Of a DNA stretch of 64,000 bases, positions 8,731 to 64,000 are shown piece after piece; within the stretch, counting starts at the first letter, position 1; every line of letters starts with the position of its first letter. The notes under the pieces are model-generated. The model was not told the DNA's origin, did not search any database, and saw only the letters and a program-made list of their open reading frames with translations. Location: assembly GCA_965216785.1 (NCBI GenBank), contig OZ244197.1, positions 25,120 through 89,119 on the forward strand, read 5' to 3'. This DNA is from Thermodesulfobacteriota bacterium (GTDB lineage Bacteria > Desulfobacterota_D > UBA1144 > Nemesobacterales > UBA2774). The position numbers were made by a program, and so were the translations under genes.

Positions 8731-11700
8731 TCACTTTCTGTGATTTATTAAATCTGCATACCTGGAATTAAACAGTCTTAATGCTTTTTGATATAACTCA
8801 AAATCTAAAGAATTCAACTCTGTAATCAAATTCATTAAATTAAGATCCAGATTTTGTACTTTCTCTATGTAGTTCTTCCCTACATTCCGGACTAGGTATG
8901 GAATATCGAGCCCGAAATTAGCATTGAGTAAATGTAGCGATTTCTTATACTGCTCTGTTATACCGATAAAACCTATGTCTTCAGGTATAAGACCATTAAT
9001 AAATTCAAACTGTCTATTTTGAAATTTTTCCGTATGCACAAACTCCAACAAAGTCCCCTTATATCCGTGATGATTTACAAAATGATTATAGTCAGACAAT
9101 ACTCGTTGGACAGGCTCTCTGAAAAATACGATACAACGTTCTGGATTAACTATGCCCCGGTACCTTATAATCGGATAATGACCTATTATAAAAATTTTGC
9201 CCTCTGAGACAAGCCTATTCCTCAGAGATTTCAGGTCATTGCTTTCGTACACAAATTGTCTTATGCAGGGCGATGTCAGGGATTCATCTATTCCATAGTC
9301 ATACGCTATATATTCCTCACCATAAGTTTCTTCTATGCCATTCCTTAAGCTTGTACCCGCGGTTTTTGGAATATGTACGAAAAAGATTGGATCTTTAAAG
9401 CTAATATCGAAAGTGTCTTCTCTTCTAGCGCCGGGTTGAAATGTTTTTAAAGTATTAACGGACGTTGCAGAATTGTCATTTATATATTCAGAAACTGCAG
9501 ATTCCAGCCATGGTTTATATACTTTTGTAGATTGCGCAATCTCAAACGATGAAGAATATAGAGAAAGATTGGGATTATAAAATGGATCATTATCCAATGT
9601 ATATCCCCATTTTGTTCTCATATAAGATATTTCTTTCTTAAATCTGTTTAGTTTCTCTGGCTCAGAATCATATCCTCGAGACTTGCTTTCTAAATGGTAA
9701 AGCTCTGCATGAGGTGTCCATATAATCTTGTAACCGGCCTGCCGAATACGGATACAGAAATCCACATCATTAAATGCCACTGCCAGGTCTTTTTCATTTA
9801 GCCCTCCGATTTCATCAAACACTTCTCGTCTTACTGCCATACAGGCAGCAGTTACACAAGACAAACTATGAGTTAACATGAGCCTACAGAAATACCCAGG
9901 AAACTCTCGATCAGCATAGCGGTGTACATGGCTAGCAACACCTTCGATACCCAGAATAACTCCACCATGCTGTAGTGTATTATCGGAATAGTAGAGTTTG
10001 GCACCGACAGCGCCGACCTCGGCCCGAATTACATGGCTTACCATTTCGTCAAGCCAGCCTGGATTTATGATCTTGGTATCATTATTCAACAAAACACATA
10101 CTTCTCCAGACGAACCGGCAATTCCATTGTTGACAAGTCGTGAAAAATTAAATGGACCTGGATCTTTTACTACCCTAACATTATTGTTTGATTGGACATT
10201 CTCAAGAAACTCGAGAGCATCCTGCTCACTACTCCCGTTATCAACAATAATTATTTCAATTGGCTCATAATCAGTGCGGTTAAAAAGCCCGTCAATACAG
10301 GTCATGAGAAGCCCACTCTGATCTTTTGTAGGAATAATTACTGAAACGTGAGGACACTTTAAAGGTAATTCACGTTTTATGGATTGAAAACTTGAGTGGC
10401 CTTCGGAATTGGCTCTAGCACTCTGATTTGTCCGTTCGAAGTGTTCGTTTACTAACCTCTGTGCGGCATCGCGCGCTAGTTCTGATGAGCTGTTTGAAAA
10501 AGACGCATCAATTTCTCTCCAGTGATAAAGAATAAAAGGAATATGATATATCTCTGATTCCCTTATTATTTCCACTACCCTGAGAGCAAAATCCCAGTCC
10601 TGAGACCCCTCGAATCCTTCGCGGAATCCTCTCACTTTTTGGGCTAGGTCAGCTCTGTAAGCACCGAGATGACTGATCAAATTCTGACCCAGGAAAAGAT
10701 CATAGTCCCAGTCGGGTTTAAAATAAGGGGCAGAGCGCCTCCCTTCTGAATCTATCCGGTCTTCATCAGAATAAATTATTGCCGCATTAGGATTTTCATT
10801 TATTACATCTGTGACCAGATATAGTGCGTGCTCGGATAGTAAATCATCATGATCCAGAAGAACAATCCAGTCTCCGCTTGCCATTTCAAGAGCTGTGTTT
10901 GTACAGGCTGAAATGCCCCCGTTTTCCTGACGAAATGAGGGTCTTATTCGGGAGTCTTTCTCCTCATATTCCCTTAGAATATTGTGTACTTCCATCGAGG
11001 TCGAGGAATCATCAACTATGCAAAGCTCCCAGTTTTCATATAGTTGTCCTAAAACAGAATCGATGGCTTGTCTTAGATACTCGCCTTTCGTATTATATAC
11101 AGGCATAAGTACCGAGAACTTTGGATTGCTATCAAAAGACTTGATATGATTCCGTATCAGAGAGCGGTCTTTATCACTTAAGGTGTCATTTCCCTGTATC
11201 CATTTATAGTAATCGATATTATTTGAAGCATTCTTTTTGTTGAAGTATCTGGAGGTTCGTGGAATCTCATGCGGGAGCCGCTTTCCCCTCAGGTACCAGT
11301 ATAACCTACCGGAGAATGTCTCTATTCCTTCATTTTTAAGCAGCTCTATCCCCAGCCCGGCATCTTCATACAAAAACGCTACCTTGTTTTTGAGTAAAAC
11401 GAACAGGTCAGCAATGCCCCTTAAAGGATGTGTAATCCGCCATGACCAAGTTACAAGTATGTTGGCTATTGTTTCCTGCTGTTCTCGAACCTGTTTTGAT
11501 AATTCTAGATTCTTCCTATCTGATTCACTCAGCTTTGACTTTAGGCTATAAATTTTACTCTTATAGATTTCTTTTTCTTGTTGCAATATCTTGAAGCGTT
11601 CATCTGAGGACAAAAGCACCTCTTGCTCACCACTTAGTTCTTCAAGACGCTTTAGCAAGAGGTTTGTCTTTGCGAATGGATTCGATGTCGAAGAAGAACA

Positions 11701-48066: not shown

Positions 48067-48258
48067 TGATAAGATTTTACAGTGACTTATGAATCTATTT
48101 CAAGTTTTGGAGCAGGGAAGTCTTAATCTATTGCTATGAAAAGATACACGAGTAGCTGTGTAATATTGCACAACTCTTGAGCTTTGGAGTCTCCTTTGTG
48201 CAAACACTGATTATCTAAGCTGCTGTGATTACAACAAATATTGAAATTTCATATAAGT

Positions 48259-48274
48259 GGCATATATATTGCAA
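48259..48274 (+). promoter_or_regulatory. Sigma-54 (-24/-12) promoter motif TGGCAT-N5-TTGCA
   Basis: gTGGCATatataTTGCAaat has correct GG-N10-GC spacing. It is intergenic, ~115 nt upstream of and co-oriented with the sigma-factor gene. Confidence 0.55.
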
Positions 48275-48387
48275 ATTTTAAGATAAAAACCGGATTAGGT
48301 AGGATGGCGGAGGATATTTACAGACTTAATAATTGTCCGCTCGGGGTTTATTCACACCAATTTATATCTAAATAAAGGAGAGTGACA

Positions 48388-49530
48388 ATGAAATATCAAG
48401 AAGCTCAGACAGCTCAGAACGAAAGCCCTTCCTTTAGTGATACATATGATAAATCCGCGGACAGTGTGGGCAATGAGAGGGAGCAGTTCTTCAATGTCCA
48501 AAATAGCGAAAGCGATTCGATAAAAGAAAACCACTCTGTACTGCGCCCACAGGAAAATAGAGCCCATACGGACGACCAATTCAGAATAATGAACGATTAC
48601 TTTAGTGATATAGCCAATGAACCCTTACTTACCCTGAGAGAAGAAATAGAGCTTCCGACAAAGATTAAAAAATGCGAATCTAAAGCAAAACAGATAGAGT
48701 CGTGGCTCGAATCAGAGGAGCAAAGCAAACAAAATGAGAGGGGCTGTCAATGCTTAATAAAAAACACTCAGAGATTACAAGCCTCACATAGAGCGTACAC
48801 AGAAAGATCCAAACAGCTTAAGAAGAGATTTGCTAACGCTAACCTGAGGCTGGTCATAAGTATAGCGAAGCGATACGTGAATCATGGCCTTCCTTTTCTA
48901 GACCTCATACAGGAAGGAAATATAGGGCTTATGAGGGCTATAGACCGATTTGATCATACAAAGGGATACAGATTCTCGACCTATGCTTCCTGGTGGATAT
49001 ACCAGTCTATTACAAGGGCGATATTGGTGCATAGAGGAGCAGTTAGGGTCCCCGTATACCTGCTTGAGGTAACGAACAGAGTCTACAGAACGAGATCAAT
49101 CCTACTTAAAGAAACCGGAAAGAACCCCACTTCTGAAGAGATAGCGGAGCAGTCCGGTGTGCCGATTAAGTATGTTAAGCGAATACTTAAAATTACAAAT
49201 GAATCAGTTAGCCTGGACTCGCCTATTGACGGTGAAAAGAGAACGCTCTACGATTTCATAGAGAACAGCGATTCGATTTCCCCTGACTATATTATCGTTG
49301 AGGATGAGCTCAAAAAAAGCATACGTCATTCCCTGTCGCTACTGAGCCCTAAAGAAGAAGAGGTACTTAGAATGCGGTTCGGAATAGACAGGAAAGATAC
49401 CGTGACACTGGATGACATAGGCAAAAAATTTCAACTTACGCGAGAACGAATCAGGCAGATTGAGAAAAAGGCTCTAAGGAAACTATCTGTTTGCAAGATG
49501 AGGGAAGCTCTTAAAAACTTCCGCACATAG
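48388..49530 (+). CDS. RNA polymerase sigma factor, sigma-70 family (group 2/RpoS-like size)
   Basis: Region 2 motifs [19 protein letters not shown] and [11 protein letters not shown], plus region 4 [30 protein letters not shown]. Start set at the ATG 7 nt after AAGGAGAG; the track uses an upstream GTG. Confidence 0.85.
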
Positions 49531-49706: not shown

Positions 49707-49722
49707 TGGTACGGAAATTGCT
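49707..49722 (+). promoter_or_regulatory. Weak sigma-54-like motif TGGTAC-N5-TTGCT
   Basis: cTGGTACggaaaTTGCTc has correct spacing, but C to T at -24 position 4. ~57 nt upstream of the small secreted protein gene. Confidence 0.3.
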
Positions 49723-53570: not shown

Positions 53571-53586
53571 TGCAACCGGTATGCCA
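53571..53586 (-). promoter_or_regulatory. Sigma-54 promoter motif TGGCAT-N5-TTGCA (reads leftward)
   Basis: The reverse complement of aaTGCAAccggtATGCCAaat is atTTGGCATaccggTTGCAtt. Confidence 0.55.
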
Positions 53587-53639
53587 AATATATAACTCTC
53601 CTTCATCATTAAGTTTTCTAAATTTCAATCTTGTCGGCA

Positions 53640-53656
53640 TGTAAACTACGTTTACA
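53640..53656. promoter_or_regulatory. Perfect inverted repeat TGTAAAC-tac-GTTTACA between divergent sigma-54 promoters (candidate enhancer/UAS)
   Basis: 7-bp arms. A further GTAAAC half-site lies 20 nt downstream (53661-53666). Confidence 0.45.
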
Positions 53657-53730
53657 TATCGTAAACTCCGTATACATATCAGTGATTCACACACACTAAC
53701 TTATTTAATGATTAAAGAGGCTTACGTTTT

Positions 53731-53746
53731 TGGCATTCTGATTGCT
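53731..53746 (+). promoter_or_regulatory. Sigma-54 promoter motif TGGCAT-N5-TTGCT (reads rightward)
   Basis: ttTGGCATtctgaTTGCTc. Predicted TSS ~25 nt before the AAGGAGG RBS of the collagen-like gene. Confidence 0.55.
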
Positions 53747-53781: not shown

Positions 53782-54576
53782 ATGAGGATATTGATATTTC
53801 TGAGTGTTTTATTTAGCGGTTTATACTTTTCACAGGATGTAACTGCCGAGGGTATAGTATTCTGCCAGAGTAAAATCTTTAAAGTCGTAAGATACAGGGG
53901 CGGCGAGCCCGGAAGCTGTAAACGATTTGAAAATGAGATTGTTATAACTACCGAAATCGGTGAGGCTGGACCTCCCGGGCCTCAGGGACTAGCTGGACCT
54001 GCAGGACCTCAAGGTGATCCTGGACCGGATGGACCAGCCGGACCTGAGGGGCCACAAGGACCGGCAGGACCTATGGGAGATGTCGGACCGGAGGGCCCAC
54101 CAGGTGATATAGACCAAGGTCTTTTGGATGATCTTCAGGAACAAATTGATATTCTAGCAAGTAAGGCATGTGGAGATGGAGAATTAGATATAATTTTTGG
54201 TGAAGAGTGTGATGATGGAAACGAATTAGACCAAGACAGTTGTTCATCTGATTGCTTAATCACAGGCCCAAGTGGTCCTTTTTGCGGTAATAGAACAATT
54301 GAAGATCCTGAAGTATGTGATGCCGATATAATTCTGACTAGTTGTATAGACTTGGGATTTGTAACAGGAGACCTAAGATGTTCGGACGACTGCCTATCTT
54401 TTGATACATCAGGTTGTCTTGACTCAGTATGCGGCAATAACAACCAGGAAAGTGGTGAAGTTTGTGATGGAACAGATTTGGTTGGTATAGATTGTACTGA
54501 CTTTGGATTCACAGGAGGTTCCTTAGCATGCGGTTTTGACTGTGTTAGTTTTAATACATCTAATTGTTCTAATTGA
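53782..54576 (+). CDS. Secreted collagen-like (G-X-Y) / Myxococcus-type cysteine-rich repeat protein
   Basis: Signal peptide. About 17 uninterrupted GXY triplets ([50 protein letters not shown]). Four cysteine-rich repeats of the CG[DN]G..E.GE.CDDGN / C.D.GF..G.L.C..DC.SF.TS.C type. Confidence 0.75.
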
Positions 54577-54664: not shown

Positions 54665-57600
54665 TTGAAAGGAGTATGTTCTTTGGAGTGTTCAGCTTGT
54701 AAATCTGCAATCACATCAGGTGAAAAATTCTGCGGCAATTGCGGAAAGAAAGTAGGGGTTGAGTGTCAGAGCTGCGGCAATGAAAATCCCCTTAAGAACA
54801 AGTTCTGCTCAGAATGCGGCAGCAAACTGAGTAACGGAACTGTATCTAAACCTGAGAGCTTCTCAAAAGATATTCCTGTACAGCTTGCCAGAAAGGTGAT
54901 AGAAGAAAAAGCACATCTTGAAGGCGAGCGTAAACAGATAACGGTCCTATTTGCGGACATATCAAATTTTACAGCATTATCCGAGAAGCTCGATCCGGAG
55001 GACGTAAAGAACCTAGTGGACGGATGCGCCAAGCTTATCATTCAGGATATTTACCACTATGAGGGTACGGTAGACAAATTTACAGGCGATGGTGTTATAG
55101 CCCTATTCGGCGCTCCAATTTCACTAGAAGATCATGCAGCCCGTGCATTGAGCTCAGCGATTAAAATCCAGGAATCTGTGAAGGAATACAGCCGTAAAAT
55201 AAAGAGCGAATTTGGGTATGAATTAGAAATGAGGATCGGGATAAATACAGGGCTCGTTGTGGTGGGGAGTATAGGGAACGACCTTAGCATGGATTATACG
55301 GCTATGGGCGATACGATTAACCTCACTTCGAGACTCGAATCGTTTGCTGAACCCGGCACAATTCTGGTCAGCGAAAATACTCAAAGGTTAGTGAGTGACA
55401 GATTCAGTTTCGGTCCGGGCGAAGAATACCGAGTAAAAGGAAAAAAATCGGCCGTAACAGCTTACAAGGTATTAGATACGAAAGAGGATGTAACGCTTCG
55501 CGACTTTCAGACTGAAGGTAGACTGACCAGATTCGTCGGGAGAAAAAGAGAGATAAATACCCTCACTGATAGAATCGACCTGGCAAAGGAAAGCCAGGGG
55601 CAGATTATCTCCGTTATAGGGGAGGCTGGACTTGGGAAAACCCGCCTTATCCATGAGCTTAGAGACTTATTAGGAAATGAAGACCTTAGATGGGTAGAAG
55701 GCAAGAGCCTGTCTTATGGCAAGTCGATACCATATTTCCCTATCATTAACCTGCTGAAAAGTTTTTTTAGGATCGAGTCTGATTATAGCGAGCGGGTAAC
55801 TAAAAATAAAATCGAGAAGGAAATCAGAGAGATTGACTCAGATTTATTGTGGACTCTTCCATTCTTATACAGCCTGTTATCAATCGGCCCCTCCGATAAG
55901 AGTATTGAGCAAATGCACGAACGGGAGATAAGGAGGAAGAGCTACGAGGCTGTTAATTCCATCTTCCAGAGACAGAGCAGAAAGCAGCCGCTACTTTTAG
56001 TAGTCGAAAACCTCCACTGGGTGGACAGCGCTTCAGAGGAGCTTATAAATCACATTGTGCACAATATCGCCAGAAGCAGAATTATAATACTGGTCTCAAC
56101 CCGTCCGGGACATTTACATCTGTTTTCCGATAAATCCTACTATACTCAGATAATTCTAAGCCCCCTTTCAGACGCCGATTGCGAATCTATGATCAAGCAG
56201 ATCCTGAAAACTCAAGACGTGTCGCGGGACTTACAGGATTTAATTTTGAACAAATGCGAAGGAAACCCATTGTATCTGGAAGAGGTCGTTAAGGATCTAT
56301 TAGAGCAGGGCGCTATAAAGGTATCCATGGGAAAAAGCTCTCTCAGTAAAAAGGGCCATGAACTGGCAGTCCCGGGGACGATACTTAGTATTATAATGAG
56401 CCGGGTGGACAGATTAGATGAGAACCTTAAAAATACGCTCCAGTGCGCCTCCGTGATAGGGAGAGAGTTTTCGTTCCCTCTACTGAACGGCATTACAGGC
56501 GGCGGCATAGAATTACATGAAGACCTTGAAAAACTGAAAGAACTTGAGCTGATATACGACAAAGGACCCTCACCTGAGCCTGAATACTTGTTTAAGCACG
56601 CGCTCACTCAGGAAGCCACCTACAACAGCCTTCTCTTCGGTAGAAGAAAAGACCTTCACCTATCAATCGGGAAGCTACTCGAGAACACACATAAAAACAG
56701 GCTCGAAGAATATTATGAGACCCTGGCTTACCACTTCTATCACGGTGAAGACGTAGAGAAGTCTTTAGAATATATGACTCTAGCTGGAGACAAGGCTTTC
56801 AGGCTCCACTCTACTAGAGAGGCCATGGAGTTCTACCAAAAAGCTATTGAGCTCATTATTAAGCAGCCTGAAACCGAGGAAAATAAATCAAAAAGAGCAA
56901 ACCTTACCATAAAGCTGACAAGGGTGCTCAGATTTTTCGAATCCCCTAAAAATATACTAGAAATGCTCAAAAGCATTGAGGATATTGCTGATACACTCGA
57001 AGACTATAATCTAAGGTCCAGAATAATGTCTCTGATCGGTTTATTTACTGTGCTATTGGCTAAGAATCAGGAAGCCGGAATCCCCTATTGTGAGAAGAGT
57101 ATCGAGATCGCGAGCACTTTGAAAGATGAAAAAATCACATCACTGGCGTTCTATAGCCTCACAATGGCCTACTATTTTACAAGAGGAAAAAACGAAGGAG
57201 CCGACCTTTTCAAAAAAGCTTACAAAATTTCAAATAATGCCGGAGATTATTTTGAGGCGAGTCATATTCTGCTGCTCCATGGTATTTCACTTTGGCATTG
57301 GGGAGACTATGAGAAAGCCCAACAATACATAAAGAATTCTCGGGACTACGCTGAAAAAAGAAAAGCTCCTACAATGGCTGCACACAGTTATTGCGCACAT
57401 GGGGGTTACGGGGTGTTTTATGGAAACTTCACACAAAACTACGTCGACGACTGTAAAAAAGCGATGCAAATGTTTAAAGAATTAGACGACGTGTACTACT
57501 ATCTTATAGTTTCAGGCTGTTACTGGTACGGAGTTTACAAAACGACAGGGAATAAAGAAGCGGTTAAAAATCTCGAGGAGACAATAAAGAAAAAAGAAGA

Positions 57601-58036
57601 AAATGATATGTGGATATGGCAGCCGATGCTTTATTCATATTTAGCTGAAGCATACTGTGATTTAGGTATTGAAAGGGAAGCGCTCGCATCATGTAAAAAA
57701 TCGATAGAAATAGCAGAGGGAGCCGGGAACAAATTAGAAGCAGGCAGAGGCAGGATCGCCTTAGGAAAATATTATATAGATAAACAAAATCGAGACTTGA
57801 AAAAGGCGGAAGTGAGTTTTAAAGAAAGTGTTGAAAACTTTGATGTTATTGAAGCAAATTCGGGCCTTTGTATGAGTTATTTCAATCTCGGTGCACTTTA
57901 TAAAGAACAGAAAAACTATAAAGAAGCAAAAGCTTATCTTTCTAAAACTATACCGATGGCTAAAAAAGCGGGGTTATGGTGGTATTTACGGAGCTCAGAA
58001 CTCCTCTTAAACGATATAAAGGAAAGCACATCATAA
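54665..58036 (+). CDS. Double zinc-ribbon + class III adenylate/guanylate cyclase + STAND (AAA_16) NTPase + TPR signal-transduction protein
   Basis: N-terminal CxxC x4. Cyclase core ITVLFADISNFT...FTGDGVIALFGAP. P-loop VIGEAGLGKTRL, Walker B LLLVVENLHWVD and the GNPLYLEE motif, then multiple TPR-like helices. The start may instead be the TTG at 54683 (SD AAGGAG 8 nt upstream). Confidence 0.8.
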   Translation: MKGVCSLECSACKSAITSGEKFCGNCGKKVGVECQSCGNENPLKNKFCSECGSKLSNGTVSKPESFSKDIPVQLARKVIEEKAHLEGERKQITVLFADISNFTALSEKLDPEDVKNLVDGCAKLIIQDIYHYEGTVDKFTGDGVIALFGAPISLEDHAARALSSAIKIQESVKEYSRKIKSEFGYELEMRIGINTGLVVVGSIGNDLSMDYTAMGDTINLTSRLESFAEPGTILVSENTQRLVSDRFSFGPGEEYRVKGKKSAVTAYKVLDTKEDVTLRDFQTEGRLTRFVGRKREINTLTDRIDLAKESQGQIISVIGEAGLGKTRLIHELRDLLGNEDLRWVEGKSLSYGKSIPYFPIINLLKSFFRIESDYSERVTKNKIEKEIREIDSDLLWTLPFLYSLLSIGPSDKSIEQMHEREIRRKSYEAVNSIFQRQSRKQPLLLVVENLHWVDSASEELINHIVHNIARSRIIILVSTRPGHLHLFSDKSYYTQIILSPLSDADCESMIKQILKTQDVSRDLQDLILNKCEGNPLYLEEVVKDLLEQGAIKVSMGKSSLSKKGHELAVPGTILSIIMSRVDRLDENLKNTLQCASVIGREFSFPLLNGITGGGIELHEDLEKLKELELIYDKGPSPEPEYLFKHALTQEATYNSLLFGRRKDLHLSIGKLLENTHKNRLEEYYETLAYHFYHGEDVEKSLEYMTLAGDKAFRLHSTREAMEFYQKAIELIIKQPETEENKSKRANLTIKLTRVLRFFESPKNILEMLKSIEDIADTLEDYNLRSRIMSLIGLFTVLLAKNQEAGIPYCEKSIEIASTLKDEKITSLAFYSLTMAYYFTRGKNEGADLFKKAYKISNNAGDYFEASHILLLHGISLWHWGDYEKAQQYIKNSRDYAEKRKAPTMAAHSYCAHGGYGVFYGNFTQNYVDDCKKAMQMFKELDDVYYYLIVSGCYWYGVYKTTGNKEAVKNLEETIKKKEENDMWIWQPMLYSYLAEAYCDLGIEREALASCKKSIEIAEGAGNKLEAGRGRIALGKYYIDKQNRDLKKAEVSFKESVENFDVIEANSGLCMSYFNLGALYKEQKNYKEAKAYLSKTIPMAKKAGLWWYLRSSELLLNDIKESTS

Positions 58037-58867: not shown

Positions 58868-58886
58868 CTGTAAACATCCATTACAG
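58868..58886. promoter_or_regulatory. Inverted repeat CTGTAAAC-N5-TTACAG (shares the TGTAAAC half-site with 53640-53656)
   Basis: ~150 nt upstream of the sigma-54 motif at 59036. Confidence 0.35.
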
Positions 58887-59035
58887 TTAAAATAACTATT
58901 TTCTGTTGTTAAGTTCCTTAAATCTCCCAAATTTTAAGTATATATTCAAATTCCAAGATTCACCCTCCTGGCAATCTCTGTAAGCAGGGTTGACACTTCT
59001 GTCAAATTATTCAATGTTTTCAGATGTTTAGAATT

Positions 59036-59051
59036 TGGCACACTGCTTGCA
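59036..59051 (+). promoter_or_regulatory. Sigma-54 promoter, perfect consensus TGGCAC-N5-TTGCA
   Basis: tTGGCACactgcTTGCAaaa. The GGAGG RBS and the ATG of the YdhR-like gene follow within 55 nt. Confidence 0.65.
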
Positions 59052-59088: not shown

Positions 59089-59430
59089 ATGATAGTAGTT
59101 CAGATTATTAACTTTAACTTAAGCGGTATGAGTGAGACGGAGTATGAGCAGACCTGTGATAATTTAGCCGGCTCATTCGCTGAGGTTCCAGGACTTCTGG
59201 CCAAATACTGGCTATCTGACCGGGCCAATAACAGTTACGGCGGGGTGTATTTATGGGAAGACCGTACGTCGCTTGAGCGTTTTACCCGCTCAGAGCTTTT
59301 TAATAGTGTTGCCACTCATCCCAATCTGGTAAACATCTCTTCACAGGTATTCGATGTGCTGGAGGGCCCTACCCGAGTTACAAGGGGCTTTGACGCTGTA
59401 AGCGCAATTGAAAAAGCCCGTGCGGTTTAA
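59089..59430 (+). CDS. YdhR-like putative monooxygenase (Dabb/ABM fold)
   Basis: VVQIINFNLSGMSETEYEQ...GLLAKYWLSD..NNSYGGVYLWEDRTSLERF..S.LF resembles YdhR (PF08803). Based on recall only. Confidence 0.5.
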   Translation: MIVVQIINFNLSGMSETEYEQTCDNLAGSFAEVPGLLAKYWLSDRANNSYGGVYLWEDRTSLERFTRSELFNSVATHPNLVNISSQVFDVLEGPTRVTRGFDAVSAIEKARAV

Positions 59431-59457: not shown

Positions 59458-59733
59458 ATGAAATTTATAGCGGTCCATCCACTAAATAGTCCTATAAGAG
59501 AGGACCAGATTACCGACGCAGCCAGAGCGTGCAGGGCGGAGAACAGTAACAACGCCTGCTGGATAGACAGCTGGACCCAGCTTAACGACGAAGGAGAGAT
59601 CACAGTTATCTATTGTCAGTACGACGCAAAGGACGCAGAATCCGTAGCAGATCTTCTTAAAAAGGGAGCACCAGACCTTCCGGTCGAGGGTATATACCTT
59701 ATGGGTAAGCTCGAAGCAGAAAATTACAGGTAA
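59458..59733 (+). CDS. DUF4242 (SCO4226-like, putative nickel-binding) protein, copy 1
   Basis: MKFIAVHPLN...CWIDSW..DEGEITVIYCQYDAKDAESV...EGIYLM. Confidence 0.6.
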   Translation: MKFIAVHPLNSPIREDQITDAARACRAENSNNACWIDSWTQLNDEGEITVIYCQYDAKDAESVADLLKKGAPDLPVEGIYLMGKLEAENYR

Positions 59734-59742
59734 AAACAGTTC

Positions 59743-59779
59743 GGGCGTTAGGTACGTATTGTATCCAACGCCCTTATAC
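59743..59779 (+). terminator. Possible terminator hairpin
   Basis: gggcgtt-N17-aacgccc followed by ttatacc. Confidence 0.35.
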
Positions 59780-59796: not shown

Positions 59797-59826
59797 TTGA
59801 ATTAAGAAAATCTAAAGTGATATAAT
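59797..59826 (+). promoter_or_regulatory. Sigma-70-like promoter TTGAAT-N18-TATAAT
   Basis: About 19 nt before the GGGGAGG RBS of the EBP-STAND gene. Confidence 0.45.
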
Positions 59827-59844: not shown

Positions 59845-62505
59845 ATGCAGCGTTCCGCGGTAGAAAAAAATAAGATCATCGGCTCAAGCGCAAAGCTTTC
59901 TGAGGTCGTGGACTTAATTTTGAAAATCGCCGATACACCGACCAACATACTTATCACTGGTGAAAGCGGCACAGGAAAGGAGCTTGCCGCAAGTCTACTG
60001 CATGAAAAGAGCAGCCGCTCAGATAAACCTTTTATGGACATCAATTGTGCGGCTATACCCGAGACGCTTCTGGAGAGTGAGCTCTTCGGTATTGAAAAAG
60101 GGGTCGCGACGGGGGTTGAGAGAAGAGAGGGTAAAATCGAGCTATCCGCAGGGGGGAGCCTTTTCCTTGACGAAATAGGCGACATGAGCCTCGGCGCTCA
60201 GGCAAAGCTGCTCAGGGTCCTTCAGGAAAGGAGCCTTAAAAGAGTAGGCGGCAAAAGCGACATCGCCGTTGACCTGAGGATAATCGCAGCCACGAACAAA
60301 GACCTTCTTTCGGAGATAAAAAAGGGGAAATTCAGAGAGGATCTTTATTACAGGATCAACGAAGTACATATTAAGATGCCTTCCCTGAGGGAAATACGTG
60401 AGGATATACCCAGTTTGTCCGAGCATTTTCTTCATTCACTCTGTCATGAGCTCAATATGAATACACTCCGGTTTAGTGATTCAGTCCTGGACCGACTATC
60501 GAGCTACAGCTGGCCCGGAAACATCAGAGAGCTTAAAAACGAGGTTAAAAGGGCAGCGCTCCTGGCCGATGGCCATATAATAGAAGAAAGAGATTTATCT
60601 CCAGATATTTTGAATTTCTTTAAAAACAAGGATGCCAGTCAAGGTCTTGTAAGTGAAGCAACTTCGCTACCTCGAGCAGTAGAAGAGCTCGAAATCCAGA
60701 TGATAAAGCAAGCCCTAAAATCATGTCAGGGAAACAGGGTAAAGGCCTCTCAGATGCTTGGAATATCAAGGCAGGGACTAATAAAAAAGATAAGCAGATA
60801 CAGGATAGATCAGGGTAGCTCTCAGAAAAAGAAAATTTCAGACCGATTGCTCAAGTCAAGCAAAAGATCGTTTGTCGGAAGAGCAAATGAGATTAAAGAA
60901 ATAAAGGATCTAATCAAGTCCAAGAAGTCTACTTACTATGTCTTATTTATTCACGGCATAGGAGGGATTGGGAAGACAAGTATGGTTAAGGAACTTTTAA
61001 ATTCCTTGGACGCTAAGGTTAGTACAATTTACCTTGATTGTAGAGACATAGAGCCGACGGAGAACGGTTTTCTAACATCGCTGGGTAATGAACTTAATCT
61101 CAAGAGCACCAGAATTACAGTAGAGCGTGTTTTAAAGAGTTTGGAGAAGAGAAAGGAAAGAACACTACTGGTACTCGACACCTATGAGACTTTCGGACTT
61201 ATGGATACCTGGCTCAGAAAGACTTTTATACCATCTCTACCTGAGAATTTTCTTACAATAATCATCGGAAGACACCCGCCAAATAATTCATGGTTTACAA
61301 GCTCAGGCCTTGGGACTCTTATTAAGAGTATTGAGCTTGAGGAGCTTTCTTATGAGGACGCGATCAACTTCTTAATACTCCGTGGGCTTACGTCAGAAGA
61401 AGCAGAAAAGACCTATTCATTCGCCCGGGGGCACCCGATGGCTCTTGAGCTAGCAGCAAATTCGGTATCATCAAAACCCACTCGAGACATTTCATACAAA
61501 TCATTCCCTAACATTATTCATCAGCTGACGCAGGATTTCCTGCTGGGTCTAGATAAGAAGACCAGAAAGACGCTCGAGAGCCTCTCTTTAGTGAGGCGCT
61601 ATGACGACACCCTACTGAAACACTTACTAAACGAAGACTACGAAGAAGGTATCTTTGACAATCTCTTAGAGCTCCCATTCGTCAGCCTAACAGGAGAAGG
61701 ATGCTTGATACACGATATAGTAAGGGAAACTATAGCTCGTGAGCTATCACTCCGTGATCCGAAGAGGTATAAGGATTCGAAAAAAGCCGCATGGGTATAT
61801 CTGAATGAACAATCGCTTGCGAAGCACGGTGAATCACTCTGGCAAGCTACTGCCGATTTGCTATACACTATAGAAAACCCGGTTGTAAGGGATGCTTTCT
61901 TTCCTAAAGGTGCAATGGGTTATGTCGTCGAGCCACTATCTCATGAGGATAAAGAGCATGTAATTGATATTGTGCGTGAGTCCGAATCGGGTGAACCTGC
62001 CGATATAATTGAGAACTGGCTCACATATTATCCGGGCAGTTTCAGTGTTGTTAAAGATATAACCGGTGAAGTTGAGGCGTTCTTTATTTTATGCGAGCCT
62101 AATGAGATCGATAGGAGCCCTTTATCTGAGGATAAAATACTCGACGTTTGGTTTAAGCACTTGGAATCTAATCCTCTAGATTCCACAGACAAAGCGCTAT
62201 TTCTAAGGAGGTGGCTCAGTAGAGGACATGGTGAAGGTCTTTGTCCTGCACAAGGAGCTTCATGGCTCGACGTTAAGAGAAACTACATGGAGCTTAGACC
62301 TAAATTAAAAAGGCTTTATACAACACTGACTGATTTAGAAAACTATAAGCCTGTCGTATTACCGTTAGGTTTTTCTCTTTTAGATAGTTCAGAGATTGAG
62401 CTCGAAGAAACAACTTACTATTCCGCCATTATTGATTTCGGACCGGACAGCGTCGACGGATGGCTCAGAAAACTTATCGGTCTTGAGCTTGGTATTGGTC
62501 AGTAA
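59845..62505 (+). CDS. Fusion: sigma-54 enhancer-binding AAA+ core + Fis-type HTH + NB-ARC/STAND NTPase + C-terminal domain of unknown function
   Basis: aa 10-245 are an EBP AAA+ core (GESGTGKE, ESELFGIEKG-GVATGV, GGSLFLDEIGDMS, SWPGNIRELKN). HTH at ~aa 285-315. P-loop FVGRANEIKEI...IHGIGGIGKTSM, Walker B LLVLDTYE and GHPMAL at aa 330-560. It has no N-terminal receiver, GAF or PAS domain. Confidence 0.8.
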   Translation: MQRSAVEKNKIIGSSAKLSEVVDLILKIADTPTNILITGESGTGKELAASLLHEKSSRSDKPFMDINCAAIPETLLESELFGIEKGVATGVERREGKIELSAGGSLFLDEIGDMSLGAQAKLLRVLQERSLKRVGGKSDIAVDLRIIAATNKDLLSEIKKGKFREDLYYRINEVHIKMPSLREIREDIPSLSEHFLHSLCHELNMNTLRFSDSVLDRLSSYSWPGNIRELKNEVKRAALLADGHIIEERDLSPDILNFFKNKDASQGLVSEATSLPRAVEELEIQMIKQALKSCQGNRVKASQMLGISRQGLIKKISRYRIDQGSSQKKKISDRLLKSSKRSFVGRANEIKEIKDLIKSKKSTYYVLFIHGIGGIGKTSMVKELLNSLDAKVSTIYLDCRDIEPTENGFLTSLGNELNLKSTRITVERVLKSLEKRKERTLLVLDTYETFGLMDTWLRKTFIPSLPENFLTIIIGRHPPNNSWFTSSGLGTLIKSIELEELSYEDAINFLILRGLTSEEAEKTYSFARGHPMALELAANSVSSKPTRDISYKSFPNIIHQLTQDFLLGLDKKTRKTLESLSLVRRYDDTLLKHLLNEDYEEGIFDNLLELPFVSLTGEGCLIHDIVRETIARELSLRDPKRYKDSKKAAWVYLNEQSLAKHGESLWQATADLLYTIENPVVRDAFFPKGAMGYVVEPLSHEDKEHVIDIVRESESGEPADIIENWLTYYPGSFSVVKDITGEVEAFFILCEPNEIDRSPLSEDKILDVWFKHLESNPLDSTDKALFLRRWLSRGHGEGLCPAQGASWLDVKRNYMELRPKLKRLYTTLTDLENYKPVVLPLGFSLLDSSEIELEETTYYSAIIDFGPDSVDGWLRKLIGLELGIGQ

Positions 62506-62587: not shown

Positions 62588-62869
62588 CTACCTGTAATCT
62601 TCACCATATACCTCGGCTATCTGAAAGATACCATCAGATGGCGGCAGCTCTGGTACGGATGATGAGAGGGTCGCGTGAATGGAATTAACATCTTTACTGT
62701 CCCACTCACAAAAAACTCTCGACACTTTTCCGTCATCAGTCAACTGAAGCCAGCTCCTGACCCAGTAAGCATCAGTGCTGAGGTTGGCCTTGCACTTTTG
62801 TGCAATCGGCACAACGTCCTCGCCGTTTACTGGTGGGTTAACCGGGTGAATAGCTATATATCTAGGCAT
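62588..62869 (-). CDS. DUF4242 (SCO4226-like) protein, copy 2
   Basis: MPRYIAIHPVN...YWVRSW..DDGKVSRVFCEWDSKDVNSI...DGIFQIAEV. Paralogous to 59458-59733. Confidence 0.6.
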   Translation of the reverse strand: MPRYIAIHPVNPPVNGEDVVPIAQKCKANLSTDAYWVRSWLQLTDDGKVSRVFCEWDSKDVNSIHATLSSSVPELPPSDGIFQIAEVYGEDYR

Positions 62870-63967: not shown

Positions 63968-64000
63968 CCATTGCCATGAATGTATATGTGAGGGAAAATG

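Follow-up and report, generated by a model that had tools for sequence, protein, structure and literature searches.

Bacterial enhancer-binding proteins (EBPs), the activators of sigma-54 promoters, are textbook cases of control through an N-terminal input domain, and signal transduction ATPases with numerous domains (STANDs) are textbook cases of signaling by induced proximity. The AAA+ core of an EBP must assemble into a ring in order to act. In a STAND, a ligand acts on the sensor, ATP replaces ADP, the nucleotide-binding oligomerization domain (NOD) oligomerizes, and the effectors are activated by their proximity. For some EBPs, such as PspF and HrpR/HrpS, control comes in trans from PspA or HrpV. 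Among STAND regulators, MalT of E. coli is the transcription activator of the maltose regulon, and AfsR joins an OmpR-type winged helix-turn-helix (wHTH) and BTAD output, working with a housekeeping sigma factor, to a tetratricopeptide repeat (TPR) sensor, with no second ATPase. Here, we describe a gene from a Thermodesulfobacteriota bacterium (assembly GCA_965216785.1) whose product is a single-chain fusion of an EBP core that has no input domain and a Fis-type helix-turn-helix (HTH) with a complete STAND module. It lies in a stretch of 64,000 nucleotides of contig OZ244197.1 (positions 25,120 to 89,119, forward strand), which we refer to as the window.

A sigma-54 activator core and a STAND module in one chain

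The gene is one continuous open reading frame (ORF). GGGGAGG precedes its ATG and there is no in-frame start further upstream, so that an N-terminal extension is impossible. Its parts, in window coordinates, are as follows.

59845-62505, forward strand: EBP-STAND fusion gene, single ORF, 886 aa
59875-60618, forward strand: sigma-54 activator AAA+ core and lid, aa 11-258 (Pfam PF00158, 4.8e-67; PF25601, 1e-22)
60100-60117, forward strand: L1 loop GVATGV, aa 86-91, replacing the canonical GAFTGA
60679-60801, forward strand: Fis-type HTH_8 DNA-binding domain, aa 279-319 (Pfam PF02954, 2e-12, 47 bits)
60871-61710, forward strand: STAND NOD, with nucleotide-binding domain (NBD) aa 343-499, helical domain with GxP aa 503-544, and winged helix aa 554-622 with H623-D624
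61714-61899, forward strand: helical arm, aa 624-685, with a nearly invariant LWQxTADLLY motif (predicted secondary structure and invariant columns)
61912-62490, forward strand: GNAT-fold putative sensor domain, aa 690-882

An initial annotation, made from the sequence alone, had proposed an EBP-type AAA+ core at the very start of the protein without an input domain, a Fis-type HTH in the middle, and a STAND module behind it, and the Pfam search bears out this domain order. Sigma54_activat spans aa 11-176 and scores 225 bits against a gathering cutoff of 20.2, which places the N-terminal part among the EBPs; AAA_lid_14 follows at aa 182-258, and neither a receiver nor a GAF or PAS domain was detected by Pfam anywhere in the 886 aa. 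Walker A (GESGTGKE, 39-46), Walker B (DE, 109-110), the arginine-finger region (FREDLYYR, 163-170), and sensor II (GNIREL, 225-230) are invariant in 13 homologs. Only EBP equivalogs match in NCBIfam (aa 3-325), all of them far under their cutoffs, and the protein is thus an EBP of no named type.

The C-terminal part contains the tripartite NOD of a STAND, namely a P-loop NBD, a helical domain, and a winged helix, and is matched by AAA_16 (aa 343-403; 50 bits against a cutoff of 32.6) and AAA_22 (aa 363-448). The STAND motifs noted initially (GIGGIGKT, LLVLDTYE, GHPMAL) are all present and are conserved across 59 homologs of this part of the protein: the G/G/G/K positions of Walker A (371-378) in 59/59; D445 and E448 of the Walker B segment LVLD-T-Y-E in 55 and 58; G529 and P531 of the GxP motif (GHP, 529-531) in 59; the sensor-I residue Arg476 in 58; and H623 and D624, an MHD-like pair of the winged helix, in 52 and 57. 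Both ATPase sites of the fusion protein, that of the EBP and that of the NOD, are intact. The name NB-ARC that was first given to the module has to be dropped, because PF00931 reaches 21.7 bits against a cutoff of 23.5 and covers the P-loop only (aa 352-390). The protein is a STAND, yet not an NB-ARC protein by Pfam, and its NOD is MalT/AAA_16-like instead. Of the profiles suggested for confirming the architecture, Sigma54_activat, HTH_8, and AAA_16 were thus found in the expected order and NB-ARC stayed below its cutoff. The resemblance to MalT is structural and confined to the NOD: the MalT equivalog (NCBIfam PRK04841) scores 26.7 bits against a cutoff of 537, and there is no TPR and no GerE domain.

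The last ~300 aa, previously left unassigned, resolve in structure prediction into the winged helix, the helical arm, and a domain of GNAT fold (aa 690-882). The GNAT-fold domain has no Pfam match at E<=10, and a PDB profile search returned only the cyclase domain of relatives and weak P-loop matches to PH0952 and Cdc6. Its beta4-alpha3 loop reads R/K793-x-x-G796-E797 and may correspond to the acyl-CoA loop, whose consensus is Q/R-x-x-G-x-G/A; G796 and E797 are found in 59/59 homologs and R or K793 in 43/59, and the final G/A position is variable. A conserved cysteine of this domain was considered as a redox sensor and rejected, since aa 806 is Ser here and the family has 46 Cys and 13 Ser. 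The module has the C-terminal putative sensor and variable effectors expected of a STAND, with a globular fold at the sensor position that is atypical compared with the usual repeat array. In the full-length AlphaFold2 model, all modules fold (pLDDT 83.9), with a pTM of 0.58 as against 0.85 for the C-terminal module alone, and low-pLDDT linkers (aa 264-273 and 324-334) flank HTH_8, indicating tethered bodies with no confident fixed interface. The model thus shows three well-folded bodies (EBP core; HTH_8; NOD, arm, and GNAT-fold domain), which two flexible linkers of ~10 aa are predicted to join.

We searched 5.8 billion proteins and found the exact protein (P0001) and 16 further clusters with the same EBP-STAND architecture, 17 clusters in all at 90% identity. 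Assemblies of JGI, ENA, Logan, and NCBI contain 13 full-length homologs (848-916 aa, 47-82% identity), and the closest named relatives are metagenome-assembled genomes of Thermodesulfobacteriota and Ca. Dadabacteria. The alignment of these homologs is unbroken across the junction, where only ~8-10 linker residues vary between invariant flanks (…LGISRQGLIKKI… on one side and …FVGR…HGIGGIGKT on the other). The possibility raised initially, that an undetected break around aa 320-330 separates two genes, can therefore be set aside: the same continuous frame in 13 homologs from independent metagenomes is not a frameshift artifact. A second, independent type of EBP-STAND fusion, with the order EBP-HTH_8-cyclase-AAA_16-TPR and a length of 1430-1540 aa (P0043, P0048), draws on the same EBP clade. 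The early impression that no such family had been described holds for the literature searched, for Pfam, and for NCBIfam, where we found neither a description nor a model of the architecture; the protein is not a singleton, however, given the 17 clusters and the second fusion type. The fusion is rare and conserved, and apparently it has not been described.

The C-terminal cassette and the origin of the fusion

When aa 325-886 alone were used as the query, the full 560-aa unit of NOD and GNAT-fold domain (the cassette) was found to recur with other outputs at 40-48% identity and 99% coverage. Neither Pfam nor NCBIfam has a model for it. Outputs attached at its C terminus include a class III cyclase (most frequent in the nearest relatives), GerE/LuxR, an OmpR-type wHTH, LytTR, a Ser/Thr kinase, and a hydrolase plus cyclase; those at its N terminus include a Ser/Thr kinase, SARP (wHTH plus BTAD), a wHTH alone, DUF4062, or, here, the EBP core with HTH_8. 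With at least nine different outputs at either end, a constant GNAT-fold domain, and the EBP as a rare output, the cassette is shown to be a mobile signaling unit with an interchangeable output domain. The GNAT-fold domain alone accounts for 555 representative clusters at 50% identity and nearly always occupies aa ~335-557 of ~650-aa proteins, directly behind the NOD. In a scan of GTDB species genomes, among which the source genome was not included, the cassette was present at 577 loci in many phyla, including cultured Pseudonocardia, Phycicoccus, Marinobacter, and Vreelandella; no EBP form was seen among the best 80 of the 577. The initial suggestion that the EBP ATPase takes the place of a STAND effector is reasonable, although most relatives carry the effector C-terminal to the cassette and here it is N-terminal.

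In a neighbor-joining tree of the cassette, computed without support values, the EBP-fused cassettes group together in a single clade, as would be expected if the fusion had happened once. At two Dadabacteria loci (L007, 4111-8205; L011, 470-4170), a cassette-cyclase gene is immediately preceded, on the same strand, by a gene for a GAF-EBP, and at a third locus (L010, 1030-3572) a 111-aa EBP fragment, 78% identical to aa 10-101, abuts the start of a cassette-cyclase gene (P0134) and may be what is left of an EBP fusion after decay or rearrangement. These neighboring genes suggest that the fusion arose from adjacent genes; a single joining of a cassette-cyclase gene with an EBP gene beside it is its probable origin. 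To judge from gene order, the unfused systems may be relays in which the cyclase makes a cyclic nucleotide that is read by the GAF domain of the EBP, a relay that the fusion may have short-circuited.

A predicted target operon

Directly upstream of the regulator are two small genes preceded by a sigma-54 promoter and paired palindromes with the layout of upstream activating sequences (UASs).

58869-58885, no strand: distal UAS palindrome TGTAAACATCCATTACA, centered 160 bp upstream of the -24 GG
58979-58995, no strand: proximal UAS palindrome TGTAAGCAGGGTTGACA, centered 50 bp upstream of the -24 GG
59036-59051, forward strand: sigma-54 promoter TGGCACactgcTTGCA upstream of ydhR, perfect consensus TGGCAC-N5-TTGCA
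59089-59430, forward strand: ydhR-family gene (ABM-like putative monooxygenase), putative target (Pfam PF08803, 2e-20)
59458-59733, forward strand: SCO4226-like small gene, second in the putative target operon (Pfam PF14026; kept in L001, L002, L003, and L089)
59797-59826, forward strand: sigma-70-like promoter TTGAAT-18-TATAAT with a TG extension, candidate regulator promoter (10/12 consensus matches)

The order is sigma-54 promoter, 38 bp, ydhR, the SCO4226-like gene, and then the regulator. The palindrome pattern TGTAAAC-N3/4-GTTTACA has four matches in the window at <=2 mismatches where 0.16 are expected, and none of 100 shuffles reaches four. We compared nine loci that carry the EBP form (the window, L001, L002/L003, L089, L004, L005, L006, L088, and L087). 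A -24/-12 promoter precedes the regulator's neighbor gene in all nine (in L006 the -12 element is TTGA, not TTGC), as do paired palindromes of this type, of which only the distal one falls within the two-mismatch cutoff in L005. The distal palindrome lies at 159-160 bp in L001, L002, and L089 and at 154-169 bp in L004, L005, L006, L087, and L088, and the proximal one is centered 50-62 bp from the -24 GG. A Fis-type HTH is accompanied at every one of the nine loci by a -24/-12 promoter with predicted upstream binding sites, as in an EBP system. In eight of the nine, ydhR is the immediate neighbor of the regulator; L087 has an alpha/beta hydrolase gene instead. It is found upstream of the regulator in the closer homologs and downstream in a group of ~50% identity, where at some loci it is followed by peroxiredoxin, thioredoxin-reductase-like, and MBL-rhodanese genes.

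The pairing with ydhR extends to other forms of the cassette. Among the GTDB cassette loci examined, ydhR is adjacent to 20 of the 58 with a DNA-binding output (13 OmpR and seven GerE; none of the two LytTR), but to none of 12 cyclase forms and none of nine kinase forms. Other recurrent neighbors of the DNA-binding forms encode small redox or detoxification folds (CMD/AhpD, ABM, SnoaL, tautomerase, DinB, and DJ-1). Since ydhR accompanies the OmpR and GerE forms too, the link to ydhR is older than the EBP fusion, which represents the form taken under sigma-54 by a conserved pairing of sensor and ydhR. On the strength of these gene and promoter arrangements, the fusion protein most likely switches on the neighboring ydhR operon. 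No functional study of YdhR was found in the literature searched.

The candidate promoter of the regulator itself, at 59797, is not significant alone (10 sites in the window against 6.8 expected). Between the SCO4226-like gene and the regulator there is an inverted repeat (GGGCGTT-N17-AACGCCC, 59743-59773) with no T-tract, which might in part keep the sigma-54 transcript from reaching the regulator. A second SCO4226-like (DUF4242-type) paralog at 62588-62869 on the reverse strand brackets the regulator together with the gene at 59458-59733; it has no Pfam match and is 36% identical to the L002 ortholog of that gene.

The sigma-54 contact loop

The loop GVATGV keeps the Thr and both Gly residues of GAFTGA and has lost the Phe. 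It is identical in all 16 fusion homologs that cover it and in dozens of related GAF-EBPs, and the clade that shares it (P0019-P0120) includes both types of STAND fusion as well as GAF-EBPs labeled "Nif-specific regulatory protein" by JGI. DVUA0100 of D. vulgaris has the same loop and is predicted to activate sigma-54 promoters, with a predicted regulon (PMC4641369). Canonical -24/-12 promoters lie beside all the members that we examined, namely the nine fusion loci, the GAF-EBP paralog of L002, and the type-2 fusion of L090. The promoter evidence from at least 10 loci thus supports GVATGV as a variant that would be compatible with sigma-54.

Proposed mechanism and alternatives

We consider it reasonably probable that the protein is a sigma-54-dependent one-component activator regulated by a STAND switch at its C terminus and not by an N-terminal receiver, GAF, or PAS domain. 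In this account, HTH_8 dimers would sit on the two palindromes upstream of ydhR, and the GNAT-fold domain would bind a small-molecule ligand, for which the neighboring genes loosely suggest a redox, electrophile, or acyl-thioester-related chemistry. The ligand would open an ADP-locked NOD, ATP would be exchanged in, and the NOD would oligomerize, gathering the N-terminal effectors as in other STANDs and so nucleating an EBP AAA+ ring on the palindromes; by its own ATP hydrolysis, the ring would then open the sigma-54 promoter of ydhR and the SCO4226-like gene. Because STANDs oligomerize and EBPs require a ring, an EBP ring nucleated by the NOD is the most economical model.

Several considerations pull the other way. 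The oligomerization, the ligand binding, and the DNA binding are all inferences. STAND oligomers vary in stoichiometry, and compatibility with an EBP hexamer is not a given; further, a control that promotes assembly and one that releases inhibition would look alike in the sequence. The contact loop is without the Phe of GAFTGA, so that the sigma-54 activity proposed for it would follow from promoter co-occurrence only. The same type of palindrome occurs in the GAF-EBP paralog clade (L002, 14084-14270; L007, 9718/9738), and the UAS alone therefore does not assign the ydhR promoter to the fusion protein. No rpoN was seen in the 64-kb window, the only stretch covered, and the tree that points to a single fusion is a neighbor-joining tree without support values.

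A more far-reaching combination of these ideas is tentative and, taken whole, rather doubtful. It would make the protein a new class of sigma-54 regulator with two oligomerizing ATPase switches in series, in which a GNAT metabolite sensor licenses the NOD and the NOD nucleates the EBP hexamer. The fusion would then be a Rosetta stone for a relay from the cyclic nucleotide of cassette-cyclases to the GAF domain of the adjacent GVATGV EBP, and the 577-locus family would sense one conserved signal tied to YdhR chemistry.

The main rival to a nucleated ring is release of inhibition: the EBP core may be competent alone and be blocked sterically, or held as a monomer, by the ADP-bound cassette, with the ligand freeing it and no NOD oligomerization being needed. 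Intramolecular repression is common in EBPs, for example through the GAF domain of PexR (PMC12754779), and the core, which carries every catalytic motif, can be likened to PspF or to EBPs deleted of their GAF or receiver domains, which are intrinsically competent. However, the structure prediction gives no confident interface between the modules, only flexible linkers, and the NOD has conserved its complete array of nucleotide-switch motifs, an argument for the importance of nucleotide cycling and oligomerization. We regard this rival as rather unlikely.

It is less likely again that YdhR is not the target of the cassette, or not only its target, but its partner, that is, an enzyme for producing or clearing the ligand, or a protein co-sensor or anti-activator bound by the GNAT-fold domain, comparable to MalY, MalK, and Aes for MalT or to PspA for PspF. 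Such a role would fit the linkage across DNA-binding outputs and the OmpR-form loci, where a ydhR of the same orientation precedes the regulator by 29-60 bp, in an operon-like layout. The absence of ydhR beside all 21 cyclase and kinase loci fits a target better than an obligate partner, and the sigma-54 promoter and UASs upstream of ydhR at the EBP loci also speak against this reading.

With the Phe of GAFTGA missing, the EBP-like domain might no longer be active with sigma-54 and might work as an activator or repressor of the sigma-70 type or have an ATPase role outside transcription; the EBP relatives TyrR and HupR, which also lack GAFTGA, act without sigma-54. We consider this quite improbable. 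The loop is strictly conserved and not decayed, -24/-12 promoters lie beside all nine fusion loci as well as beside the GAF-EBP paralog and the type-2 fusion with the same loop, and DVUA0100 has its predicted sigma-54 regulon (PMC4641369).

A role as an anti-phage or conflict STAND (Avs/NLR-like) with an EBP effector, hinted at by weak PADLOC and NCBIfam matches to Avs4, PDC-S27, and a DS8 anti-phage protein, is very improbable. Those matches cover the P-loop region only, at 14-22 bits and far under any threshold; a nuclease, TIR, or pore effector is absent; the gene lies in core chromosome; and its association with ydhR and with small genes of redox or detoxification type is stable from phylum to phylum. 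We rejected the defense reading on the Avs4 scores (14.7 bits in PADLOC; 21.7 bits against a cutoff of 1500 in NCBIfam) and the lack of a toxic effector domain. That an assembly or frameshift error joined two genes has a negligible chance of being true: nothing but the odd architecture speaks for it, and it is refuted by the continuous ORF and by homologs from four data sources with the same junction and conserved residues on both sides.

The wider window

The initial annotation also placed the gene among several sigma-54 promoters, and the window does contain five such sites at <=1 mismatch against 1.67 expected, a number reached by two of 100 shuffles. Its further proposal of a candidate master regulator of a local island finds no support. 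The 64-kb window is ordinary core chromosome (GlmS, AspRS, RecG, OGDH, POR) with no compositional island, and the only conserved predicted target is the adjacent ydhR operon. The most fitting description of the fusion protein is that of a local regulator of ydhR and the SCO4226-like gene.

Only one other sigma-54 region in the window bears UASs. Its divergent promoters, 53571 (reverse) and 53731 (forward), within 53571-53746, enclose two palindromes, a perfect one (TGTAAACTACGTTTACA) at 53640 and another 20 bp away at 53660. There is an exact counterpart in the Dadabacteria locus L007 (9619 reverse and 9808 forward, with palindromes at 9718 and 9738), where a GAF-EBP is present and no EBP-STAND; the region is thus probably the paralog's regulon, and we rejected it, as unproven, as a target of the fusion protein. 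The GAF-EBP paralog lies just past a luciferase-like gene in L002, with the same UAS type, and its equivalent here would be beyond position 64000.

The 53571 side of this region leads into a small ORF and a methyltransferase-like gene, and the 53731 side into genes for a collagen-repeat protein, a cyclase-STAND, and an SDR. The collagen-repeat protein (53782-54576, forward strand, 264 aa), the first past the 53731 promoter, has collagen triple-helix repeats and a weak DUF4215 match and is conserved in L002 (1664-2647). The cyclase-STAND (54665-58036, forward strand, 1123 aa), which lies 1.8 kb upstream of the regulator, is a second STAND protein, composed of a double zinc ribbon, class III cyclase, AAA_16, and TPR. 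Its architecture with an EBP-HTH in place of the zinc ribbon is that of the type-2 fusions (P0043, P0048). One of these (P0048; L090, 2300-2583) has a divergent sigma-54 promoter TGGCATGGCTTTTGCC on the reverse strand and three CGTAAAG-N4/5-CTTTACG palindromes, which drive small genes including two for DUF1059 and one for DUF1326, a domain also fused to some cassette-cyclases (P0154); an SCO4226-like gene follows the fusion (L090, 7205-7471).

Two further sites have no palindromes near them. A sigma-54-like site at 48258-48273 (TGGCATatataTTGCA) precedes a sigma-70-family sigma factor gene (48382-49530, forward strand; regions 1.2, 2, 3, and 4), and another at 49707-49722 (forward strand, TGGTACggaaaTTGCT) has no downstream ORF of >=90 aa on that strand and may be spurious, or may drive a small gene or RNA. 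Rfam gave no match in the window.

Significance

A natural EBP-STAND chain suggests that a transcription motor of the ring-forming AAA+ kind can take the effector role in a STAND. The chain also offers a tractable system for how one oligomeric ATPase gates another, needing only sigma-54, one promoter, and one protein. The cassette, further, uncovers a large unannotated STAND family with a putative GNAT-fold sensor instead of a repeat array. Because this family is stably linked to ydhR, finding the ligand would assign a function to both the cassette and ydhR.

Comparison with known systems

The fusion protein shares the MalT-like NOD with MalT. MalT has a SUPR/TPR superhelix as its sensor and a C-terminal LuxR HTH that works with sigma-70, whereas the fusion has a GNAT-fold domain at the sensor position and, as its output, an N-terminal EBP AAA+ core and Fis HTH that presumably work with sigma-54. 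In placing the effector and DNA-binding module N-terminal to a MalT-like NOD, it resembles AfsR and other large SARP regulators (SARP-NOD-TPR), and true SARP-cassette relatives occur within the cassette family (P0353, P0363). It differs from AfsR in having a GNAT-fold domain where AfsR has TPRs, and in its second ATPase.

PspF and HrpR/HrpS are alike in that the sigma-54 AAA+ core comes first and a Fis-type HTH after it, with no N-terminal regulatory domain; the fusion has a 560-aa regulatory cassette in cis behind the HTH. DVUA0100 and the GAF-EBPs of the GVATGV clade have the identical L1 loop and a similar type of UAS, and the EBP core of the fusion is 55-64% identical to those of the clade (P0019 and others), which, however, take their input through a classical GAF domain at the N terminus and have no further domain behind the HTH. 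The GAF-EBP peroxide sensor PexR was considered as a relative and rejected, since it has GAFTGA and a different UAS, CACCG-N6-CGGTG (PMC12754779); it is an analog only.

The cyclase-AAA_16-TPR STANDs likewise join a MalT-type AAA_16 NOD to a signaling output, with another NOD subfamily, a TPR sensor, and the cyclase kept as the output. The ORF at 54665-58036 belongs to this type, which we take to be that of the mycobacterial Rv0386 class, and the type-2 fusions (P0043, P0048) indicate that the same EBP clade has also been fused to it. The protein described here is thus a combination of two known kinds, an EBP and a MalT-like STAND, to which it adds a newly recognized family of putative GNAT-fold sensors and a conserved predicted target.

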